Below are positions 1-10,458 of a stretch of DNA of 10,458 nucleotides, one piece after another; position 1 is the first letter of the stretch; the number at the start of each line of letters is the position of its first letter. Origin of the DNA: a virus. Taxonomy: Duplodnaviria; Heunggongvirae; Uroviricota; Caudoviricetes. The stretch lies in the IMG/VR virus record IMGVR_UViG_2585427789_000026, one strand, 5' to 3'. Below the pieces are notes generated by a model. That model ran no database searches. It was given only the letters and a program-made list of their open reading frames with translations, and was not told the origin of the DNA. The translations under genes were made by a program, and so were the position numbers.

Positions 1-1167
1 TCAGGCCTTATGGTGGAAATAATCACTCAGGCGAGAAAACATGCTGCCTTCCCCGACAGATTCCAGGGTAACCAGCGGCCAGTGCGCCACCTGTTTATCA
101 CGGTCGTAAAGTTCAATTTCCCCTACCCGCTGATGGGCGCTAATTGGCGCGGTGAGCTCTTTACCATTAAGGGTATATTTGGCTTTGATATGTGGAATTT
201 CGGCTTTCGGTAGCACCATCCAGAACTCTTGTTCCGTTCCCAGGGCGATATTTTCTTTATCACCATACCAGATGCGTTCCGTACCGACCTTTTTCCTACG
301 GTGCAAAATTTGCACCGTAGTAAAGTTTTGTTGCCCCCAACGCAGTAATTTTTTTGCCTCTTCCTCACGACCTTTTGCGCTGTCAGCACCCATTACCACT
401 GCAATGAGGCGACGCTGCCCGTCTACAGCCGAAGCAATAAGATTAAACCCGGCACCAGAAGTATGGCCCGTTTTCAGGCCGTCAACATTCATGGTCTTAT
501 CCCACAATAACCCGTTACGGTTTTGCTGGGTGATACCGTTCCAGGTGAGGCTTTTCTCACTGTACATATGATAAAACTCGGGCTCGCCGTGGATGATAGC
601 GCGAGAAAGCACGGCTAAATCATAAGCCGAGCTATGCTGGCCAGGTGCATCCAGACCATGCACTGTTTCAAAATGCGTATCCTTGAGATGCAGCTTCTCG
701 GCATAGTTGTTCATCATTTCAACAAACTGCCGTTGCCCACCGGCAATATAGTCAGCCAGAGCAACACACGCGTCATTTCCGGAATCCACAATTAAACCTC
801 GGCTTAAATCACGTACCGATACGCGATCGCCCTCTTTCAAAAACATCAGTGAAGAACCGACAAACACCGGATTATCTTTCGCCCACGCATCACGCCCCAC
901 GGTGACAATATCGTCTGGCGTAATGCGATGACTATCGATAGCGCGATCCACGACATAGCCCGTCATCAGCTTTGTCAGGCTGGCGGGATTGCGCTGTTGA
1001 TGCTCATTACCCGCGGTGAGAATCTGACCGGTGGTGTAATCCATCAATACCCAGGACCCGGCATGAATCTCTGGAGGCTGAGGTGAAAAAGGAATGTTTT
1101 CCGCCGCAAAACCAGACGATAAATTAAAAACGAACAAAGAAGCAGCAATAATAAGACGGCGTTTCAA
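1..1167 (-). CDS. dacD: D-alanyl-D-alanine carboxypeptidase DacD (penicillin-binding protein 6b)
   Basis: Complement ORF with stop at 1-3; translation carries the serine-PBP motifs SLTK (SxxK), SGN and KTG and matches E. coli DacD as recalled. The ORF track extends to a TTG at 1171-1173; the recalled 388-aa protein (MKRRLIIAAS...) starts at the TTG at 1165-1167. Confidence 0.92.
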   Translation of the reverse strand: MKRRLIIAASLFVFNLSSGFAAENIPFSPQPPEIHAGSWVLMDYTTGQILTAGNEHQQRNPASLTKLMTGYVVDRAIDSHRITPDDIVTVGRDAWAKDNPVFVGSSLMFLKEGDRVSVRDLSRGLIVDSGNDACVALADYIAGGQRQFVEMMNNYAEKLHLKDTHFETVHGLDAPGQHSSAYDLAVLSRAIIHGEPEFYHMYSEKSLTWNGITQQNRNGLLWDKTMNVDGLKTGHTSGAGFNLIASAVDGQRRLIAVVMGADSAKGREEEAKKLLRWGQQNFTTVQILHRRKKVGTERIWYGDKENIALGTEQEFWMVLPKAEIPHIKAKYTLNGKELTAPISAHQRVGEIELYDRDKQVAHWPLVTLESVGEGSMFSRLSDYFHHKA

Positions 1168-1375
1168 CAGCAAACCCTCAGGTGTTTCAAATAGCTGTTC
1201 TTTTTACGGAAATACTTATGAACTGGCTGGAATAAAGTGCAAGAAAATGTGACTACTACCTCATTTTTATCTGACATGATCTGTTGCCACTCGCTGCCAA
1301 ATTGTCGCGCTAAAGCTGATTAGCACGGTGATATTTGATACTCTGGCAGACAGCAGAAATAACGGATTTAACCTA

Positions 1376-2195: not shown

Positions 2196-4781
2196 CTACT
2201 CTATCTCTTTTGCTTTTTTAATTATCAATTCAAGCTCTGTTAAACGAGACTCAATGCGTTCACACCTTCTTCGCTGGAATGCAGCCTCCAACCACAAACA
2301 TTCATCTGGACGCAATCCCCAACGCTCACCAGCATGTACAACCAGTTCCGTGTCACCAGTATCGTATTCTTCAAAGTATTCGTGAACGATGTCTTCTCCT
2401 TCAGGGGATTTAGCTATAAATGACACCTTGCGCTGTGCCATTACAGGTTGGTACTCATCATCCCATTTATCATGACATAGCAAGCCAAATCTTGTTCCAT
2501 CTATCCCCTTTGCAAGAAACGCATCTCTTACCTGCTGTGCAATTGCTCCGAAATGCCAACGAGCAGTATCCGAACCTTTAGCCTTAATATCGGACAACCA
2601 CTGGTAAACGATAATATTTACGTCACCCCATGCGTCAAGAATTGCATCCTGATCCACCTCCATGATTTCTGAAAGTTGCTCTACTGTCAGTGGCTTTGTT
2701 TTCAATGTCTGGTCTGAAGTATTTATTGCCCCATTAGTTGCATATACTTGCGTCCACCGTTTAGATGATGTCCCACATGATGACGTATTATCTTTATTAG
2801 CACTTATATAGCCATTAACCTCCGCTGACTGACCGATATACGAATATGAAGATGTTGATAAGGGAGATTTAAATATCCATTGAGCATTGGTAAAGTCATA
2901 AATACCGGTATCACCTTTTTCACTAACATGAAAAGTTACATTCCGTAACGTATTCTTTGCATCATAACGGGCGGCTTGTGTTGTTGCCCTCGAAACAGTG
3001 AATCCTTTGTCATCAAGGTTTGCCTGCTCTATGACTTCACCACCAGGCATAATTTTACCAAGGCTTAACAAACCAGAGTTAGTGACAATATCATGGGTTG
3101 AATCAATGATAATACCAGGCTGATTTCTTGATGTTGTTTTTACATGCATTACCTGTTGTGGCATTAATGTGTAAAATGTAGTTTCTCGCCCACTATCACC
3201 ATCTGGTATGCCATTTGTATTCCCCATTACAAGGTCATACCCACCTGCAATCATACGGAAAAACATTGCTTCTGGTTCATATGTAAGATTGCTAACATCT
3301 GGCGTTCCGGTATCATTTGGATCTGCTATTTCATAGGCTCTTCCTGCACCTGCCTGTATTTGCTGCACCCCAAGATAAACACCATCAAGTGTGTACTGAT
3401 GCAAATATTTTCTGGTTGAAGAATATGCAGATCCAGCCTGACAAAAATAAATAGCAGTACCGTCACACGCAACTGTTTGCATATCCCTCACAAAATCGGC
3501 AATTTCAAATTCAAAAGTTGCTTCATTACGATAATCGTAATTGTACGCCTGCGGGTTAATAAATTTGCTGGTATCAAATACTTTTACATAATAGCGAATT
3601 TGATCTGGTGTTGATGGGCTCTCACCAGGGCCAACATAACGTTTTGCTGTAGTAATCAGCCATCGACTCATAGGGTCGGTGCATAAAACATTTACCTGAT
3701 TCTCGTAACCATCTTCCCATATGAGAAAAAACTCTGGTTCAATTTCACCACCATCAGTAGGGGTGAATCTGGTGATATACTTTGCGCGATCCTCTCCTTT
3801 AGCTGTGCCAGCTAACCCCCATATCTGTAACTGGCCTCTTGTGTTACGAAAACCAACGCGCCCTATGGTTAAACCAAGACATTGATGTCCTAATTCTCTA
3901 CTACCTTTAGTCTCCCAAAGAGGAGTTAACTCTTCATTCCCAAACCAATTATAAGCAACAACTTTATTAACTTCGTCACCAGAACTAACGCTGCCACTCA
4001 CATTTACCAAGCAATAAAGAACACTGTCATAATAATCAAGAACAGCACCCTGTATGACAGTATTTTTAATTGTTGCCAGTCGCAACCCTGACTTAACATG
4101 ATTAGGAGTAGAAGGTCTGAAACCTGTATACATCCCCTTTTTTATAGTTTGTATTCTTTTTTCAGTAAAATCAGCATCTGGCAGTAATCGATTCTCTGTG
4201 CGAAAATAGCCATTTATATACTTATTTCCATCAAAAACTTGATCTGTTATATATGTATTACCCCTTAGATCAACAATCCTTCCTGTGATTTGTTTTTCTA
4301 ACTCTTGAAAAGATAATGTGTCATCGGTGATGCCATCACCTTTTGCTCCCCATCCGCGAGGGTCAGCGTCATCACGCCACCGAGACATCTGCAATTCATG
4401 ATATTTTTTAGCACCTTCCGGGTCTTCTAATTGTTGTCTTAATTGGTCAGGATCGTACTTAAGCACATTCGGAAAATAGAACTGCTGCGTACCATATGCA
4501 TCGTAAACAGCCATAGAATGGCCTTGCACGGTAACGAATTTGGAAATCTGTCCGTTGTATACCGGGTATCCAGCAGCATTGATAACGATTGGCTGTGGCA
4601 CCTGAACATAAGTACCATCTTCTCGTTCCAGATATACTGGAATCTGGTTTTCTGGATTTACCGGATCTGTGTCAATCTTACCGATATAAATTTTTCCATT
4701 TGCTACGGTTTTAAAAGAGCTAGCCATTGTGAAGAGTTGCGATGGCATCCCAATTACAACATTTGGGGTTATATCAGGCAT
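2196..4781 (-). CDS. Phage tailspike: P22-type N-terminal head-binding domain, pectate-lyase-like beta-helix central domain, C-terminal intramolecular chaperone (peptidase S74-like) domain
   Basis: N-terminus [17 protein letters not shown]...[27 protein letters not shown]...[15 protein letters not shown]...NVLKYDPDQ aligns closely with the P22 gp9 / HK620 head-binding domain as recalled. Central [12 protein letters not shown] motif is typical of pectate-lyase-superfamily depolymerases. C-terminal ~173 aa begins SDQTLK (Ser codon 2715-2717), fitting the S-x4-K self-cleavage signature of tail-fibre chaperone domains. Start chosen at ATG 4779-4781 (AGGA 8 nt upstream); the ORF-track start at 4874 has no ribosome-binding site. 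Confidence 0.85.
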
Positions 4782-5197
4782 ATTAGTCATCCTGTTTGAA
4801 GATTTAGATATTGAAGAAAACGGAATGACTGCAGACAAAGATGCAATTGTTTTGAAAAATAACCTTCTATTCATTTAAAAACCATGCAACATGAACAAAA
4901 CGATTATTTTACAATACTCAAGAATCTTGATCAACAGGCATATTATTTATGCGCTTAATGCGTCACTTACAAAAATAAAAACAAGTAATACCTTTATTCC
5001 TATCGTCCATGATTTTTATTTTCAAACATTATTAAATAACAATTCCTATTTATAATATCTGTCATTTAATTTGCTCCAGATACAAGGAATCGCCGCAGCA
5101 TGGCTACGGTGAGCATTTGTTACATACCGAAACGGTACGATTGTTGATTTGTACAGTAGGTTTTACGATGCCATTCCACCCATTTGGTGAGGCATTG

Positions 5198-5455
5198 ATG
5201 ATGTACAGCAAATACGATGAGGCGCAGTTCCACTTGAGGCTTACGCACGAGTTGCACGCTAAGATTAAGCAGCGTGCAAAAATGAATAACAGGTCTATCA
5301 ATTCCGAAATTGTGGCTACGATGGAAGAATCACTCTCCAAACCATCACCTGTAAGCGGGTATCGTGATGAAGAAGAGAGGCTGGACTCATTAATCTCGGA
5401 ACGAGTAAAAGAAGTTGCGGCTGATATCCTTAGAAAAGAAAAAACCCGCGATTAA
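5198..5455 (+). CDS. mnt: Mnt-like ribbon-helix-helix repressor
   Basis: Translation MMYSKYDEAQFHLRLTHELHAKIKQRAKMNNRSINSEIVATMEESLSKPSPVSGYRDEEERL... aligns along its length with P22 Mnt as recalled (…FNFRMP…GRSMNSE…SKPSPVTGYRNDAERL…). GGTGAGG lies 5 nt upstream of the ATG at 5198; a second ATG follows at 5201. Confidence 0.8.
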   Translation: MMYSKYDEAQFHLRLTHELHAKIKQRAKMNNRSINSEIVATMEESLSKPSPVSGYRDEEERLDSLISERVKEVAADILRKEKTRD

Positions 5456-5463
5456 GCGGGTTT
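5442..5463. terminator. Bidirectional intrinsic terminator between convergent mnt and the antirepressor operon
   Basis: Perfect 8-bp stem aaacccgc / gcgggttt with 6-nt loop gattaa, flanked by an A-run upstream (a U-tract for the minus-strand transcript) and ttt on the plus strand. It overlaps the mnt stop codon and lies 7 bp from the stop of the 73-aa ORF. Confidence 0.55.
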
Positions 5464-5469
5464 AGTTGG

Positions 5470-5691
5470 TTAGTTATCAAAAAGTCCGTACGTTTCTTCT
5501 TCTTCAGGTGTAAGGGGAAGAATCTCTACTCTATCTATAGATACCTTTTCAATGTACCCATGAGGCCTACTTAAAATTAAAGCTCTCTCATGCCACAGAA
5601 CTCCAAGAATGTGATACCTTCCAGCATCGCCTTTTACCCTGGCTCTTCCTTTGATTCTTGGCGGCATAATGCCATATTTTTTCTTTGCCAT
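5470..5691 (-). CDS. Hypothetical 73-aa protein (basic N-terminus, acidic C-terminus), translationally coupled to the upstream antirepressor
   Basis: Its ATG (5689-5691) overlaps the TAA stop of the upstream gene (5691-5693) as TAATG; it ends just before the bidirectional terminator. No family recognised. Confidence 0.5.
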   Translation of the reverse strand: MAKKKYGIMPPRIKGRARVKGDAGRYHILGVLWHERALILSRPHGYIEKVSIDRVEILPLTPEEEETYGLFDN

Positions 5692-6416
5692 TATGCAACA
5701 TTACTCCCATGAATAAGGTGTTGTAGTGCTTTAACACCTTCCTCATTGTAGCGGAACGCTTCCACCTGTTTGCTGGAATGCGCAGATTTATCCAGGAAGA
5801 ACTTCCCGTACTGCTCAGTTTTGAGGTTGTTTGCGTTAGCAATGCGACCAATCTTGTTGGCCGTTACTCCAAGCTGCTCTGCAACCTCCCCTGCTGAGTA
5901 GTAATGCTCTTCTATTGCCGGAAGAGGTATTGCATTAAAACCAACGAGCGGGTTGATTATACTTGCTGCCGCTGTCTGCTTTGCCTCCGGCGCAAGATTT
6001 GGCATCAGATCGAACAGATTGGTAACAGCTTCAACCGTCATTTTCAATGTTCGCGCTTGACGATACTCAACAAGTCCACTCGCTGATTTACCGCTTTTAA
6101 TGTGCGCTTCCTGCATACTTTCAAGTTTGTCTACAAGTGTTCGGCGAACTGCTTTAGATTCGCGAGCAGCAACACGAAGCGCCTGCTTGATAGTCATGGA
6201 GATAACATCAATGTCAGCCCCGTTTTTCCGACCTACACTTTTTGTGTAGGTCTCGCCTTCCAATTCATCCTCAATTTTCTCGATGAATTTGTTGTTACGT
6301 ACTGATGGCTCTCCACATAACTTGCGAGCTTCATTAACCATCATCAGAAGACTTTGGCTGTCAATGGTTTTATCCGTGACAACGGATCCGATGTTTGCTA
6401 CATTCTTAAAAGTCAT
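5691..6416 (-). CDS. Phage antirepressor / regulatory protein, Rha-like N-terminus with KilA-C (ANT) C-terminal domain
   Basis: C-terminal YYSAGEVAEQLGVTANKIGRIANANNLKTEQYGKFF...FRYNEEGVKAL fits the KilA-C antirepressor domain pattern; N-terminal ...DSQSLLMMVNEARKL...VRNNKFIEKIE resembles Rha/ORF6N. Start chosen at ATG 6414-6416 (MTFKN..., AAGGA about 7 nt upstream) rather than the ORF-track TTG at 6503. Confidence 0.65.
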   Translation of the reverse strand: MTFKNVANIGSVVTDKTIDSQSLLMMVNEARKLCGEPSVRNNKFIEKIEDELEGETYTKSVGRKNGADIDVISMTIKQALRVAARESKAVRRTLVDKLESMQEAHIKSGKSASGLVEYRQARTLKMTVEAVTNLFDLMPNLAPEAKQTAAASIINPLVGFNAIPLPAIEEHYYSAGEVAEQLGVTANKIGRIANANNLKTEQYGKFFLDKSAHSSKQVEAFRYNEEGVKALQHLIHGSNVA

Positions 6417-6485
6417 TAGGCATTCCTTATGTGGTAGTAAGGGTGTGACATAGGCCGCCAGCAGCACACTGGCGGTTTTCTTTTG
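6411..6485 (+). ncRNA. Putative sar-like antisense RNA covering the start codon and ribosome-binding site of the Rha/KilA-C antirepressor
   Basis: Candidate promoter GTGACA (6376-6381), 17-bp spacer, TACATT (6399-6404) would start transcription near 6411 and end at the terminator above, about 70 nt. The geometry mirrors the P22 sar antisense RNA in the arc-ant region. Confidence 0.35.
6454..6485 (+). terminator. Plus-strand intrinsic terminator in the intercistronic region between the two antirepressor genes
   Basis: Stem ccgccag (6455-6461) / ctggcgg (6469-6475), 7-nt loop, followed on the plus strand by ttttcttttg (6476-6485). The minus-strand side has no U-tract. Confidence 0.55.
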
Positions 6486-6503
6486 CGCAGTCCGGCGCAC
6501 CAA

Positions 6504-7142
6504 TCAATGAATCCATTCCTCGCCGCGAAGTTTTGCCAGCATTGGCTGAGCGTTCTTTACGACAAAATTGTTGGTATCAAGATTCTTCATTTCACGAAGA
6601 AGTGATTTCTTGGTTTCTTCTGACATGTAGCGAGTCTCATATGCAATATCGTAAATCCTTCCTGAAAGCTCAGAACCAATTTGCTTCATTCCTGGGTAGA
6701 TGTGTTTGCACATTTGTTGACTCTTCTCCATCCACAATTGTAAGTAGCAGAGATTAACCAGCTCTTCGTCAGTGAACTGTTTTGCAATCGGTGAGCATTC
6801 TGCCTGCCGATCCAAAATATCCAGCACCCAGCGGCGGAACTCTTTGGCCTTGGGCGTAGAAGCAAACATCGCCACCAAGTGAGCGCCTCGGAGTGAGTAA
6901 ACTCTGACCGATTTGTTACGTAAGCTATTGTTTATTCCGTTGACCTTCATATTGAGGGTCAATGACATTGAGTCGGAAAATTCGTCAGCATTACGGGCAT
7001 AAATTTGGCTGATGGCATCAGTTTTTTTATAGCCGAGAGCCTTAGCTAGTTCGGTGGAGGTAAACCAGATAGACCCGCCCTCTGTTACAGGGTTAAAAGT
7101 GAATCCTTGGAAGTTATAATCTGATTTTGCTACAATATTCAT
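6504..7142 (-). CDS. Phage antirepressor with Bro-N / AntA-type N-terminal domain
   Basis: N-terminal ...FQGFTFNPVTEGGSIWFTSTELAKALGY...VYSLRGAHLVAMFASTPKAKEFRRWVLDILD matches the Bro-N / antirepressor N-domain pattern. Start chosen at ATG 7140-7142 (MNIVAKSDYNFQ, AAGGAAA 6 nt upstream), downstream of the arc stop; the ORF-track start at 7247 overlaps arc. Confidence 0.65.
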   Translation of the reverse strand: MNIVAKSDYNFQGFTFNPVTEGGSIWFTSTELAKALGYKKTDAISQIYARNADEFSDSMSLTLNMKVNGINNSLRNKSVRVYSLRGAHLVAMFASTPKAKEFRRWVLDILDRQAECSPIAKQFTDEELVNLCYLQLWMEKSQQMCKHIYPGMKQIGSELSGRIYDIAYETRYMSEETKKSLLREMKNLDTNNFVVKNAQPMLAKLRGEEWIH

Positions 7143-7220
7143 GTTAGTTTCCTTGAGTACGGTTACTGACATAGAGGCCCGGTTTGTGTTCGCGCACTGC
7201 CGGGCTTCACTATTTTTATT
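7143..7220 (+). ncRNA. Putative second sar-like antisense RNA covering the ribosome-binding site of the Bro-N antirepressor
   Basis: Candidate promoter TTGGAA (7107-7112), 18-bp spacer, TACAAT (7131-7136) would start transcription at about 7143, beside the Bro-N start codon, and run about 70 nt to the hairpin and T-tract at 7174-7220. Same geometry as the 6411-6485 unit. Confidence 0.3.
7174..7220 (+). terminator. Plus-strand terminator-like hairpin with T-rich tail at the arc 3' end, upstream of the Bro-N gene
   Basis: GC stem gcccgg (7177-7182) / ccgggc (7200-7205) with extension, followed on the plus strand by ttcactatttttatt. The minus-strand side has no U-tract. Confidence 0.4.
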
Positions 7221-7389
7221 GGATGACAACATCGCCCTTTGCCTCAAGTTTCATTAATAACTCCATTCGATAAGCTATCTCTGCCTGAATTGACCTATGG
7301 CATCTTTTTGCTGATTCGCGGATATGTGAATCAACCTTTTCTGTAAAACGAACCTGACGCGGCTTGATGGAAGATATCTTTTCAGTCAT
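7216..7389 (-). CDS. arc: Arc-like ribbon-helix-helix repressor (57 aa; not in the supplied ORF track)
   Basis: Hand translation of the complement strand: MTEKISSIKPRQVRFTEKVDSHIRESAKRCHRSIQAEIAYRMELLMKLEAKGDVVIQ-stop. It aligns with P22 Arc as recalled (…PQFNLRWPREVLDLVRKVAEENGRSVNSEIYQRVMESF…). AGGAG lies 6 nt upstream of the ATG at 7387-7389. Confidence 0.7.
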   Translation of the reverse strand: MTEKISSIKPRQVRFTEKVDSHIRESAKRCHRSIQAEIAYRMELLMKLEAKGDVVIQ

Positions 7390-7435
7390 TATGCACTCCT
7401 GTTTTTGAAAAACTCATAATCTCACTTTTTGTAGT

Positions 7436-7467
7436 TTGATTATTCACTCACACTCAGTATGAGTCAA
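7436..7467. promoter_or_regulatory. Overlapping divergent promoters with candidate operator (palindrome ACTCA-gta-TGAGT plus ACTCA repeats) between arc and the CI-like gene
   Basis: Minus strand: TTGACT (complement of 7462-7467), 17 bp, AATAAT (complement of 7439-7444), reading into arc. Plus strand: TTGATT (7436-7441), about 16 bp, TATGAG, a weaker promoter reading into the CI-like gene. The 13-bp palindrome at 7452-7464 overlaps both; further ACTCA half-sites at 7412 and 7445. Confidence 0.4.
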
Positions 7468-7488
7468 TGAATTTTTTATGGTGAACTA

Positions 7489-8130
7489 ATGAATTTTGAC
7501 GATCAATTCCCATCAAGAGTATCTCTGGCAAGACAGTCCAGGGGTATGACGCAGGCGCAGTTGTCAAAATTAGCTGGTGTTGTTCAACGTCAAATAGCTG
7601 CATACGAGGGTGGTGAGGCTAAACCACGGCTTCGGGTATTGCAGGCATTAGCCAACGCATTAGGTACTACGGCTGAGTGGTTAGCTCTAGGTGAAGGTCA
7701 GGGTCCGGGAACAAAAAACGTCATGCCTGACGTTCTGGTAAAGCAAATACCAATTCTCAAACTAGATGAAGTTATGCATTACCTAAACACAGGTGAACAT
7801 TCATCGTCTAGATTTCATCCTGCAATATACAATGTTGGTGACTCTGCATTTGCATTGACTATTGAAGGTGAAGCTATGACTACAAGTTCAGGTATTAGCT
7901 TTCCCAGAGGATCGGTTGTCACGTTCAGCCCTCTAGTAAAAGCTAAAAGCAAAGATTATGTAATAGCATCATTGGATAAAGAGCAAATATTGAGCTTCAA
8001 ACAGGTTTACATTGGTGAAATAGAGACAAACCTAGTATCCCTAAACCCAATGTATCCTAATATTCTTGTTAGAAATGAAGATGTTAGTATTTTGGCAACC
8101 GCAGTTTACCTTGAAATCCCGTTGCTTTGA
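7489..8130 (+). CDS. CI-like repressor (XRE-type HTH plus LexA/S24-like C-terminal domain) with catalytic Ser and cleavage site replaced
   Basis: N-terminal HTH (…GMTQAQLSKLAGVVQRQIAAYEGG…); C-terminal GDSAFALTIEGEAM…SFPRG…LSFKQV…LNPMYP aligns with lambda CI GDSAFWLEVEGNSM…SFPDG…FTFKKL…LNPQYP. The G-x-S-M nucleophile position reads Ala (GCT 7873-7875) and the Ala-Gly scissile position reads Asp-Glu. Confidence 0.8.
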   Translation: MNFDDQFPSRVSLARQSRGMTQAQLSKLAGVVQRQIAAYEGGEAKPRLRVLQALANALGTTAEWLALGEGQGPGTKNVMPDVLVKQIPILKLDEVMHYLNTGEHSSSRFHPAIYNVGDSAFALTIEGEAMTTSSGISFPRGSVVTFSPLVKAKSKDYVIASLDKEQILSFKQVYIGEIETNLVSLNPMYPNILVRNEDVSILATAVYLEIPLL

Positions 8131-8190
8131 TATCCTTTAGGAGGCGACACATTATCATCTGGTATCCTGCTCAAAACTAAGGAGGTTGGT

Positions 8191-8379
8191 GTGAAGAAAA
8201 AATTTGTAAACGTTGCAAAGTGCGCAATTTTTATATTTTTTATGACCTTTTACGGATTTAGTGCCGGAGAAGGTTTCGATCGTGATGCCAATGCATTCAG
8301 TTTCTTTTGTCTGTCTATAGTGGTCATAATTGTATGGGTGGAATTAAAGCAAACATTGTTTCATGTGCTAAGGAAATAA
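8191..8379 (+). CDS. Hypothetical small membrane protein (62 aa) downstream of the CI-like repressor
   Basis: GTG start 5 nt after a strong TAAGGAGG (8178-8185). Lys-rich N-terminus followed by two hydrophobic segments. Same strand as the CI-like gene, 60 bp downstream. Confidence 0.5.
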   Translation: MKKKFVNVAKCAIFIFFMTFYGFSAGEGFDRDANAFSFFCLSIVVIIVWVELKQTLFHVLRK

Positions 8380-8396
8380 CCATCCATGGCATTTAG

Positions 8397-8931
8397 TCAC
8401 TGCTGTGTTGCCTCAGTGGCAAGCAGCGGTCTGATGGCATTTGCAGCGTTACTTAATGCTCTTTCATAGGCTGGCGTTCCTGCTTTGGTGTTTGCCAGAC
8501 GTAAGAGCGCATTCCTGGCCATAGGGCTTTCATAAACCCTCGACATAAGGCCAATCCCTGTTTCCCCAGCCAATAGCGCGCCTCCGGTTTTTAGGTTACC
8601 AATAACCCTTACCAAAGGCGCGAGTGTCATGCCAGTCTTCGTCACAACATTAGCCTCAGATGCTCTTTTGGTAGCATCGAGAATAGATAACATCCCCTCT
8701 ATCTCTTTTCCGTTCTTCCCACCAAATACAGTTTTAAACACCTGACCATTTGCTTGTTTTTGCAGCTTGCCAAGCTCGGTCATCATTTTCTGAGGGCTGT
8801 CACCTACCTTGTCAGCTATTTTGCTGATATATGCCGCCCTTAGCATGTCTTTACCTTTTTGATCGAGTTTCCCGTACAATCGAGCTATATCTGACCCATA
8901 TTGTCCATACACAATGGTATTTACAGCCTCG
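8397..8931 (-). pseudogene. 3' fragment of a phage late gene (putative DNA-ejection / internal virion protein, gp16-like by position), truncated by IS66 insertion
   Basis: The reading frame stays open upstream of the listed GTG (8912) straight into the IS66 end, with no convincing ribosome-binding site. The protein is low-complexity and Ala/Gly/Lys-rich. The gp16 assignment rests only on position relative to P22 gene order. Confidence 0.4.
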
Positions 8932-10458
8932 GTAAGCGGCTCGCCAGAACCGTATTGATATTTACTGAGAGGTCAGATCAACTTTCCAGGGCAACAGATC
9001 GCGTACCCGGTTTGCCGGCCAATCCTGGATATGCTCAATGACGTAACGCAGCCATTTTTCTGGTTCCACATTGTTCAGACGGCATGTGCCGATCAGCGAG
9101 TACAACACCGCCGCATGTTCGCCACCGCTGTCGGAACCCGCGAACAGCCAGTTTTTCCGGCCTACGGCCACTCCCCGTAAGGCGTTCTCTGCGATGTTGT
9201 TGTCGATTTCCACCCAGCCATTACTGCAGTACACGTTCAGGCCATCCCACTGTTTCAGCAGGTATGCGAACGCTTTTGCCGTATCCGAGTGACGCGACAG
9301 TGTTTTCATCTGAGTCTGTATCCAGTCATACAGTGACTGCATCAGTGGCGCGGCTCTGGCTTTTCTTGCCGCCAGACGCTGTTCTGCTGAACATCCCCGG
9401 ACTTCTGCCTCGATGGCATACAGTTCACCGATACGCTGCAGGGCTTCCGTGGTGATGTCGGTGGGCACTCTTGCATGCACATCGTGGATTTTTCTCCGGG
9501 CATGAGCCATACACGCGGCTTCCGTTATTCTGCCGGATTCGTATAACACCCGGTAACCACCGTAAGCATCGGCCTGAAGCACACCGCTGTAACCGGCCAG
9601 ATGATTTTGTGGATGGATACCTTTCCGGTCCGGTGAGTACGCGAACCAGACCGCCGGGGGCATTTCCGAACCGGCGTTACGGTCATCACGGACGTAGACC
9701 CACAGCCGGGCGGTCCGGGTTTTACCGCTGCCCGGCTCCTGGACCGGGACGGGGATATCATCAGCATGGACTTTACCGGGCATCAGCACATACTGGCGCA
9801 GGACGTCATACAGCGGCTCCAGCAGTTCAGCAACGGCACCTGTCCAGCGCCCCAGCGTGGCGCGGCTCAGCTCCACGCCCTGGCGACGGTATATTTCTGA
9901 CTGGCGGTATAACGGCAGATGGTCTGCATATTTCCCGGTAACAACATGGGCCAGAAGCCCCGCTCCGGCATAACTGCGTGCAATGGGTTTTGAAGGTACT
10001 GTTGCCTGCACGATATGGTCGCACCGACAACAGGCCAGTTTCGGACGTTGTGTTTCGATAACCTTAAAGGCGCTGCTGATAAGCTCCAGTTGCTCTGACA
10101 CATCACACCCCAGAGGACTGAGGTCACCACCACAGGCCGGGCAGCATTCCTCTTCCGGCCGGATGACCCGGGTTTCACGGGGAAGTGAGGCCGGTAACGG
10201 TTTACGGGCTGAAGACTGGCGCAGGGCGGATGGCAGTACCGGGTCATATTGCTCACCCAGCGTTTCCGCCATTTCTTCCTGAAGTGCGCTGATTCGCTCC
10301 TGTGCTTCCTGTATCTGCCGTTCGGTTTTAGCGCGAAGTTTTTCTGAGCTTTTACCGAACTGCATGCGCTGCAGTTTCGCAACCAGCGCCTTCAGCCGGT
10401 TGATTTCGGAAGCATAAGCCGCCACCCGCTGTGAGAGCAGGCGGTTGTATTTCGCCAT
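8932..10458 (-). mobile_element. IS66-family insertion sequence, right end, continuing beyond the window
   Basis: GC-rich block beginning GTAAGCGGC at 8932, consistent with the GTAA terminus typical of IS66-family inverted repeats as recalled, 30 bp from the transposase stop. Sharp composition change from the AT-rich phage sequence. Confidence 0.75.
8962..10458 (-). CDS. tnpC: IS66-family transposase (TnpC/orf3), N-terminally truncated by the window edge
   Basis: 498-aa ORF ending ...[11 protein letters not shown], with leucine-zipper-like N-region, CxxC...CxC zinc motif (CPACGG...CCRCDH) and a conserved catalytic core. The M at 10458 corresponds to an internal position in full-length IS66 TnpC as recalled, so the true start lies outside the window. 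Confidence 0.9.

Follow-up and report, generated by a model that had tools for sequence, protein, structure and literature searches.

In phage P22, gene 9, ant and arc are read leftward, mnt, orf59a and sieA rightward, and gene 16 again leftward, in this order. The Mnt protein of P22 is a ribbon-helix-helix (RHH) tetramer that contacts its operator, Omnt, through Arg2, His6, Asn8 and Arg10, and Omnt is a single 17-bp palindrome abutting the -35 hexamer of the mnt promoter, Pmnt. Omnt also overlaps Pant, the strong divergent promoter of arc-ant, which Mnt represses so that lysogeny is maintained. Tetramers of Mnt form through a C-terminal helical extension that sets the protein apart from Arc. 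Vershon et al. are said to have found in 1987 that the effect of P22 Mnt on Pmnt is indirect, an activation that goes via Pant. The region is hypervariable among P22-like phages, and Villafane et al. 2008 named it the ‘ant moron’ (PMC2629481). ST64T and ST104 retain mnt only within the ant moron, and for the HS-1 type, also drawn in that work, the antirepressor must be regulated in a way unlike that of P22 (PMC2629481).

Here, we analyse a Mnt homolog, Mnt_w, encoded in a window of 10,458 nt (the whole stretch of DNA under study). The window contains, in this order, dacD, a small ORF, a tailspike gene, mnt, a hairpin, four minus-strand genes, a CI-like gene and the 3' end of a gene 16 homolog. 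The kind of gene, the layout and the hypervariable module are already known. What we add is modest: a predicted third specificity class of Mnt, paired with an operator, and the finding that orphan Mnt units with no known target show conservation and constraint.

A Mnt homolog under purifying selection

A previous sequence-only reading of this DNA had recognised a clear Mnt homolog, and the matches bear it out. Mnt_w aligns with the Pfam family Arc (PF03869) over residues 8-53 (E = 3.8e-15), with the PDB structure 1MNT over residues 7-79 (2.3e-15) and with the PHROGs family phrog_795 (3e-31). The first two alignments cover an N-terminal RHH domain, whose recognition strand reads QFHLRL. The alignment to 1MNT extends to residue 79 of 85 and spans ERLxxxxSExVKxxxxDxL, which includes the Mnt-like C-terminal helix region. 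Given this span, we regard the protein as a Mnt and not as an Arc; its size of 85 aa is also Mnt-like, Arc having 53 aa. By analogy with P22 Mnt, Mnt_w should be an RHH tetramer.

The coding sequence can start at either of two ATG codons, at 5198 (85 aa) or at 5201 (84 aa). The second is the start kept in relatives, and the PGAP CDS also begins there. Longer coding sequences from 5117 or from the ATG at 5168 were discarded, as 1-nt indels in the relatives break the frame; the latter codon also overlaps the predicted -10 hexamer described below. Position 5463, where the previous reading ended the feature, is the end of the downstream hairpin, and the coding sequence ends at 5455.

The gene is under strong purifying selection. 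In comparison with VSe13-type alleles it shows 6 non-synonymous and 31 synonymous differences, with a dN of 0.031 versus a dS of 1.13 (dN/dS ~0.03), and the ORF is intact in ~80 loci, with dN/dS values ranging from 0.02 to 0.17. Such constraint points to a functional mnt/operator unit, even though there is no antirepressor for it to guard in cis. The allele of the window is carried by ~102 of 5426 complete Escherichia coli genomes (~2%).

Position of mnt relative to P22

Positions 4700-8200 of the window are 100% identical to Escherichia phage JEP4 (genus Lederbergvirus). The wider context is a degraded P22-like prophage in the dacD/sbcB interval, as in E. coli strain E100341, and only the 3' end of the gene 16 homolog is present, interrupted by an IS66-family transposase gene. 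The features that frame the locus are the following.

1-1173, minus strand: dacD
2196-4790, minus strand: tailspike gene, with a P22 head-binding domain, an endosialidase-type N-terminal extension and a chaperone domain
5198-5455 (or from 5201), plus strand: mnt homolog, encoding Mnt_w
5442-5463: hairpin AAACCCGCGATTAAGCGGGTTT, common to mnt and the convergent antirepressor operon (terminator scan and folding)
5470-7389, minus strand: antirepressor operon

mnt is convergent with the four minus-strand genes (orf73, a 241-aa antirepressor, Ant and an RHH gene) and shares with them the hairpin at 5442-5463, both as previously described. This hairpin and the stop codon of mnt overlap. Folding gives -12.4 kcal/mol (z -4.5) for the minus strand, where UUUUUUCUUUU follows, and -14.6 kcal/mol (z -3.9) for the plus strand. 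As an intrinsic terminator the hairpin is good for minus-strand and weaker for plus-strand transcripts, and it is kept in VSe13, where the downstream gene is different.

The sequence-only reading had described mnt as displaced, with a rearrangement of the module as one of two options. Synteny with P22 speaks against a displacement. In the window, the leftward gene 9 homolog is followed by the rightward mnt, the leftward orf73, antirepressor, ant and RHH genes, the rightward CI-like gene and the leftward gene 16. Comparing both orders, the strand of mnt and its neighbourhood to the tailspike leader are unchanged, and what is missing is the arc-ant pair that in P22 lies between mnt and the tailspike gene. 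As in P22, mnt stands in the ant moron between genes 16 and 9, antisense to the late operon. Its upstream region aligns with Omnt/Pmnt of P22 (-35 ATTGAG/ATTGTT, -10 TAnGAT), and beyond the palindrome the sequence passes directly into the conserved tailspike leader and start codon. The antirepressor operon, on its part, stands at the side of P22's orf59a-sieA, toward gene 16.

Scanning the IMG/VR proteins with Mnt_w yielded 220 relatives, and the loci of 80 of them were analysed. In 79 of these 80 loci, the immediate left neighbour of mnt is the N-terminus of a tailspike, with a median of ~133 bp from mnt to the tailspike start. The right side is variable: the same operon with the RHH/CI-like pair was found in 20 loci, the same operon headed by an Arc homolog of its own and a second, different Mnt in 25 (type B), other antirepressor arrangements in 9, and no antirepressor was detected in 22, with nothing before gene 16. 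A tailspike-mnt junction without intervening arc or ant is also present in ST64T, SE1, Gally and Sf101. In VSe13, this junction and the same class of Mnt are followed by just one short antirepressor gene. The layout of the E. coli HS prophage is that of the window plus an IS3 insertion.

According to these results, the layout is a known and frequent form of the hypervariable ant moron, not a rearrangement. The possibility, raised earlier, that it is a common arrangement in a described subgroup of P22-like phages with a mapped Mnt operator holds in its first half (ST64T/ST104 and HS-1; PMC2629481) and not in its second, the operator being predicted here. The sequences compared are best explained by a P22-type immI unit that lost arc-ant and kept its resident mnt, which would make this gene an ‘orphan’ in the normal mnt position.

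A predicted operator upstream of mnt

The earlier observation that a P22 Omnt-like palindrome (GTCCAC/GTGGAC) is absent extends to the entire locus, as a search for GTCCAC-N-GTGGAC over the whole window found none. We attribute this to a specificity of Mnt_w that differs from that of P22 Mnt. The elements predicted between the tailspike leader and mnt are the following.

5123-5139: predicted operator of Mnt_w, CATACCGAAACGGTACG, 17 bp and nearly palindromic around its centre at 5131, with TACCG-AAA-CGGTA as the core
5141-5169, plus strand: predicted Pmnt, with -35 TTGTTG (5141-5146), a 17-nt spacer and -10 TACGAT (5164-5169)
5146-5174, minus strand: decayed equivalent of P22 Pant, with ATGGCA (5174-5169), a 17-nt spacer and CAAATC (5151-5146)
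5186-5192, plus strand: Shine-Dalgarno sequence GGTGAGG of mnt

The predicted operator stands at the position of Omnt in P22, 1-2 bp before the -35 of Pmnt. It is the sole exact copy in the window, and none of 200 shuffles reached the observed match count; a search of the 39-kb JEP4 genome at up to 3 mismatches gave no second copy. A match with 1 mismatch at 8922-8934 in the window, beside the IS66 junction, was regarded as chance. The site occurs once per locus in all loci analysed. In each of the ~97 phage loci among the matches listed, it precedes the start of mnt by about 73 bp, and no arc, RHH or ant promoter has the site next to it. Comparison of 14 diverged upstream regions shows three invariant blocks: the TACC/GGTA core, the ATTG of the -35, and TTACGATGC around the -10. 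To the left of the palindrome the sequence varies. The invariance of operator core and promoter hexamers persists even where synonymous sites are saturated.

The operator also changes together with the recognition strand of the protein. Proteins with QFHLRL are paired with ATACC(G/T)AAA(C/T)GGTA, those with QFNLRL or QFNLRM with AGACCACnGTGGTCT, and those with HFNFRM with GGTCCACCGTGGACC. As complete sites, the operator is AAGACCACnGTGGTCTT for QFNLRL (ST64T, SE1 and Gally) and QFNLRM (the canonical loci L091, L144 and L155), and AGGTCCACCGTGGACCT for HFNFRM (P22). For the QFNLR class, the pairing holds in orphan and canonical layouts alike. The strand positions that align with His6, Asn8 and Arg10 of P22 Mnt are reportedly those that contact the operator, from the work of Knight and Sauer.

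The predicted Pmnt is homologous to that of P22 (TTGAGA-17-TATCAT), and this rightward promoter retains TTGnnn-17-TAnGAT. It matches the consensus weakly (7/12) and is absent from the output of the promoter scan. On the other strand, Pant is intact in P22 (TTGACA-17-TATATT) and in the three canonical loci (TTGACA-17-CATTAT). The -10 hexamers of its equivalents in orphan layouts all lack the T at position 6 (CAAATC, TAAATC, TATATC and TGCATC); in ST64T the equivalent reads TCGGCA-17-TATATC. The promoter scan gave no promoter-like site at 5146-5174, and a conserved leftward promoter near the operator was sought by eye and not found. Judging from these hexamers, the Pant equivalent of the window is decayed. 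With neither arc nor ant on the operator side and with Pant decayed, the locus encodes a Mnt homolog but is not a working P22-type mnt/arc/ant switch.

The tailspike leader

The tailspike gene encodes a protein with the Pfam domains Head_binding (4.5e-61), Peptidase_S74 and End_N_terminal, and PGAP places its start at 4781. Between this gene and the predicted operator we found three further features.

4791-5053: AT-rich spacer (27% GC) that separates the present start of the tailspike gene from the relic one
5000-5065, minus strand: relic of the ancestral tailspike start, 21 codons, translated as MTDIINRNCYLIMFENKNHGR and then a stop
5093-5109, minus strand: tailspike-leader hairpin CCGUAGC-CAU-GCUGCGG, the ‘boundary sequence’ bsq1 of CUS-3

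At the leader hairpin, the mnt/operator unit borders on the gene 9 leader, and ~60 bp of sequence are conserved here (92-100%) among many P22-like phages. The minus-strand fold of the hairpin has -12.4 kcal/mol (z -3.0); compensatory changes (AGC/GCU to AUC/GAU) and G.U pairs on the minus strand only are observed in its stem. The relic start is preceded by the conserved RBS and leader (5066-5112), and tailspike start and leader are identical in P22, VSe13 and ST64T. The large distance between mnt and the tailspike gene in the window is explained by this succession of relic start, AT-rich spacer and new tailspike start. The spacer, which is missing from most relatives, contains a minus-strand promoter-like sequence in the promoter scan (TTGATC-17-TAAAAT, 4934-4906).

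The neighbouring antirepressor cassette

The operon that converges with mnt and the gene divergent from it comprise the following.

5470-5691, minus strand: orf73
5691-6416, minus strand: second antirepressor, 241 aa (phrog_1726 anti-repressor, 2e-102)
6504-7142, minus strand: Ant, with Bro-N and P22_AR_C domains (Pfam; phrog_245 Ant, 4e-50)
7140-7215, plus strand: candidate sar-like antisense RNA, covering the RBS and start codon of ant
7216-7389, minus strand: RHH protein, 57 aa, with a weak ParD_like match below the Pfam cutoff
7489-8130, plus strand: CI/C2-like repressor, with HTH_3 and Peptidase_S24 domains, divergent from the RHH gene

The region between the divergent RHH and CI-like genes (7390-7488) contains nested inverted repeats and a promoter-like site for the operon, the minus-strand TTGACT-17-AATAAT at 7467-7439, which is a strong match. 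The CI-like gene occupies the mnt position of this cassette, next to the arc-like RHH gene, as the sequence-only reading had noted. Its product aligns with the C-terminal domain of lambda CI (1e-7) with an Ala at the catalytic Ser149, so the repressor is probably not cleaved in the SOS response; it is likely the maintenance repressor of the antirepressor operon. The candidate sar-like RNA follows a plus-strand promoter-like sequence (TTGGAA-18-TACAAT, 7107-7136) and folds into two hairpins and a U-run (-35.1 kcal/mol, z -6.2). No Rfam family matched it at gathering thresholds, and weak matches to SymR and a Trp leader fell below threshold and were disregarded.

Set against the immI-type module of P22, the cassette (5470-8130) thus presents an RHH gene (weak match), Ant, a CI-like gene in the mnt position and a sar-like candidate (by folding only). 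In the 25 type B loci, a second Mnt and an Arc homolog (Mnt2 and Arc2) replace the CI-like and RHH genes before the same ant genes, with a different palindrome, ATGACATCACCATGATGTCAT, between them. The antirepressor operon is best explained as a separate cassette on the gene 16 side of the ant moron, with its own regulators.

Possible function of the Mnt/operator unit

We propose, with a probability of roughly 60%, that Mnt_w is an autoregulated orphan immunity repressor that sits in the normal mnt position and does not control the adjacent operon. It would bind one 17-bp operator, at 5123-5139, abutting the -35 of its own weak promoter, in a geometry that would be that of Omnt/Pmnt in P22; the DNA binding and the autoregulation are what we infer from this arrangement. 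With Pant decayed, Mnt_w could act in cis only on Pmnt and on any transcription that enters the tailspike leader. Control of the adjacent operon would fall to the RHH protein and the CI-like repressor of that cassette and probably to the sar-like antisense RNA. Our best guess for the selective role of Mnt_w is immI immunity in trans: expressed from the prophage, it would repress Pant-type promoters with the same operator in incoming or co-resident phages. Of the two options offered by the sequence-only reading, the second, an orphan with a different target, fits this evidence.

For the ST64T class, phages with the same operator at an intact Pant do exist, and 3 of the 31 loci among the matches listed have the canonical Mnt-operator-Arc-Ant arrangement. 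For the operator class of the window, we found none in the ~97 loci among the matches listed (IMG/VR, one genome per species); the genome scan of this search returned mostly chance matches to the 14 specified bases. The trans-immunity role is hence left without an identified target among these loci. The mnt homolog of the E. coli P22-like prophage Kapi1 showed no detectable transcription in lysogens (PMC12922286), and expression of Mnt_w is therefore not to be assumed.

The nearly invariable vicinity of the tailspike suggests another role, in which Mnt_w gates tailspike expression. The predicted operator precedes the ancestral start of gene 9 by ~58 bp; bound there, Mnt_w would shut off a residual leftward promoter or hinder late or antirepressor readthrough into the tailspike gene, and the unit would be kept for tailspike dosage and not for immunity. 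Adjacency to the leader is near-invariant whatever the other flank (79/80 loci), and there is a single operator per phage genome, in the path of late transcription into gene 9. Besides, the ant moron of P22 affects the tailspike level, with Mnt and Arc as possible participants (PMC2629481), and prophage BTP1 is heavily transcribed at this junction, both sense and antisense (PMC7067206). By eye, Sf101 has a somewhat better leftward candidate, ATGGCA-17-AATACT. Nevertheless, a tailspike gate seems unlikely to us. The hexamers of the Pant equivalents are decayed, none of the -10s having a T at position 6, and from the operator to the leader hairpin the sequence lacks conservation. Insertions of 260-660 bp, moreover, separate the operator from the working tailspike start in the window and in HNH-bearing loci, yet mnt and operator are intact there. 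Common descent and recombination at the boundary sequence can account for the adjacency itself.

We give far less weight to the idea of a rearranged module in which Mnt_w continues to act in trans on the arc-like/antirepressor promoter and represses it, the first option of the sequence-only reading. It is true that mnt and the operon adjoin each other with a common terminator and that the first gene of the operon encodes an Arc-like RHH protein, as in P22. However, neither an operator-like site nor a TACC/GGTA half-site pair was found in 7390-7488 at up to 2 mismatches, and the operon has its own divergent CI-like repressor. Mnt_w is present in the 22 loci in which no antirepressor was detected, and also in the 25 type B loci, where Mnt2/Arc2 and their different palindrome precede the same operon. 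As these type B loci hold a complete immI unit in addition to Mnt_w, they are the clearest sign that Mnt_w does not regulate the adjacent operon. It is just as hard to believe that gene and palindrome are a non-functional relic of a degraded immI in a defective prophage. The prophage is indeed a remnant, with gene 16 cut by the IS66-family element, Pant decayed, and the head and immC regions missing in a closely related strain. Yet the identical module is found in JEP4, deposited as a complete 39-kb genome, and the ORF conserved in ~80 loci at dN/dS values of 0.02-0.17, the core and hexamers that are invariant despite saturated synonymous sites, and the covariation of operator and recognition strand all argue against decay.

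Implications

Annotation should neither assign to this mnt the control of the adjacent antirepressor operon nor present the layout as rearranged. Many P22-like prophages retain an intact and strongly constrained mnt with its operator after the loss of arc-ant, and the pairs of operator and recognition strand offer a cheap experimental handle on Mnt specificity and on the protection that orphan Mnt may give against foreign antirepressors. We also entertain, as a tentative and rather doubtful generalisation, that orphan Mnt/operator units are kept as a distinct device, for anti-antirepressor immunity or as a tailspike gate, whose specificity diversifies by an arms race. If this were true, HFNFRM-GGTCCAC, QFNLR-AGACCAC and QFHLRL-ATACCG would form a natural allelic series for the recognition code of the RHH beta-strand.

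Comparison with known systems

With P22 immI, the locus shares the RHH domain of Mnt and, by alignment, its C-terminal oligomerisation region (1MNT, E = 2e-15). Also shared are the place of the gene, which runs antisense to the late operon in the interval from gene 16 to gene 9, and one palindrome of 17 bp, predicted in the window, that abuts the -35 of the gene's own promoter. It differs in that Mnt_w is only 45% identical to P22 Mnt and has the recognition strand QFHLRL instead of HFNFRM, and in an operator of the type CATACCG-A-CGGTACG, whereas that of P22 is AGGTCCAC-C-GTGGACCT. Unlike in P22, there is no arc, sar or ant downstream of the operator, and the Pant hexamers are decayed.

The mnt-only morons of ST64T, ST104, SE1 and the E. 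coli phage Gally (PMC2629481) resemble the window in the succession of leader, boundary hairpin, operator, Pmnt and mnt, but their Mnts belong to the QFNLRL class, with the operator AAGACCACnGTGGTCTT, which is also found in canonical loci.

The same Mnt class as in the window is present in the HS-1 type (E. coli HS prophage), JEP4, VSe13, Sf101 and IME10, the last of which is known from its Mnt match alone (64% identity). HS and JEP4 also have the same cassette of RHH, Ant and CI-like genes, and the accessions of the HS RHH and CI-like proteins are identical to those of strain E100341. Unlike in the window, the second antirepressor of HS is interrupted by an IS3 element, Sf101 has no antirepressor, and VSe13 has one short antirepressor gene in place of the operon. 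The window, for its part, has an extra AT-rich spacer and a different tailspike.

Finally, the neighbouring cassette resembles both the LexA-controlled antirepressors of the Gifsy prophages (PMC3121763) and P22 immI, with a repressor divergent from a small RHH gene that is followed by Ant-family genes; it departs from the Gifsy-type modules in its CI-like repressor, which has an Ala at the catalytic Ser position.

Tailspike leader hairpin and the operator-tailspike interval

The stretch between the predicted Mnt operator and the tailspike gene of the window contains the following features:

5093-5109, minus strand: tailspike mRNA leader hairpin, CCGUAGC-CAU-GCUGCGG
5000-5065, minus strand: ancestral start of the tailspike gene, surviving as a 21-codon relic (MTDI...)
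4791-5053: spacer of 27% GC with its own promoter-like site, placed after the relic of the ancestral start

The hairpin is conserved across the loci compared, with compensatory changes between them, and its G.U pairs are possible on the tailspike sense strand only. Its position is that of the element which the CUS-3 annotation calls 'boundary sequence', and module-swap junctions fall at it. P22 carries two copies, at 2583-2599 and about 2698-2713 of L004. Downstream of the old tailspike start, the window's current tailspike cassette was spliced in; it has chaperone domains and an N-terminal extension of endosialidase type.

In other prophages, insertions of HNH/AP2-type endonuclease genes occupy the same spot as this spacer, and these loci, too, retain a short remnant of the former start. 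One such gene is listed here; loci L355, L380 and L398 resemble it.

L387, 4147-4689: HNH/AP2-type endonuclease gene in the interval that separates the Mnt operator from the start of the tailspike gene

Regarding the state of the prophage, the homolog of gene 16 (DNA transfer protein), in the region 8397-10458, is cut short by an IS66-family transposase gene, and the head, lysis and immC regions are missing in a near-identical strain. With these losses, the prophage is a non-viable remnant.

Probable regulators within the antirepressor cassette

7489-8130, plus strand: CI-like repressor
7140-7215, plus strand: candidate sar-like antisense RNA of ~70 nt, with a promoter-like site at 7107-7136

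When the CI-like repressor was aligned to the C-terminal domain of lambda CI, the equivalent of Lys192 was found in both proteins, whereas the catalytic Ser149 of lambda is replaced by Ala (EGEAMT versus EGNSMT in lambda). This substitution makes autocleavage unlikely; a repressor that is probably not autocleavable would fit a maintenance role rather than that of an SOS sensor.

The candidate RNA would pair with the Ant gene's RBS and start codon, to which its sequence is complementary. It folds into two hairpins (-35.1 kcal/mol, z -6.2) and has a U-run at its 3' end; the Rfam search returned 0 families at threshold.

Related Mnt loci and comparison with P22

L008 (type B), 6213-6320: region with the perfect palindrome ATGACATCACCATGATGTCAT, between the second Mnt-like gene and the Arc-like gene
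L270 (Serratia marcescens), 4505-6723: convergent RHH, Bro-type Ant and second Ant-like gene facing Mnt
L004 (P22), about 2650-2703: 18-residue relic of the second antirepressor, NELEGETYKKIVGRK, in the spacer between ant and gene 9

In type B loci, such as L008, a second Mnt-like protein of 83 aa is encoded along with an Arc-like one of 63 aa, and the palindrome is predicted to be a fourth operator class. Mnt homologs widely bear the wrong names 'partition protein ATPase' or 'chromosome segregation ATPase', both in PHROGs (phrog_795) and in RefSeq records of P22-like phages, for example those of Sf101, ST64T, SE1 and epsilon34.

The convergent antirepressor/Mnt arrangement of the Serratia marcescens contig matches that of the window. 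Its Mnt is 69% identical to the window's, with an operator of the same class, and a P22-type tailspike N-terminus is absent from the 700 bp past the operator.

In a two-sequence search, the P22 relic matched the second antirepressor of the window at 12/18 residues (E 1e-5), so that an ancestor of the P22 immI region probably carried ant with a second-antirepressor gene after it. This gene is intact in the window (5691-6416), while in P22 it is reduced to the relic.
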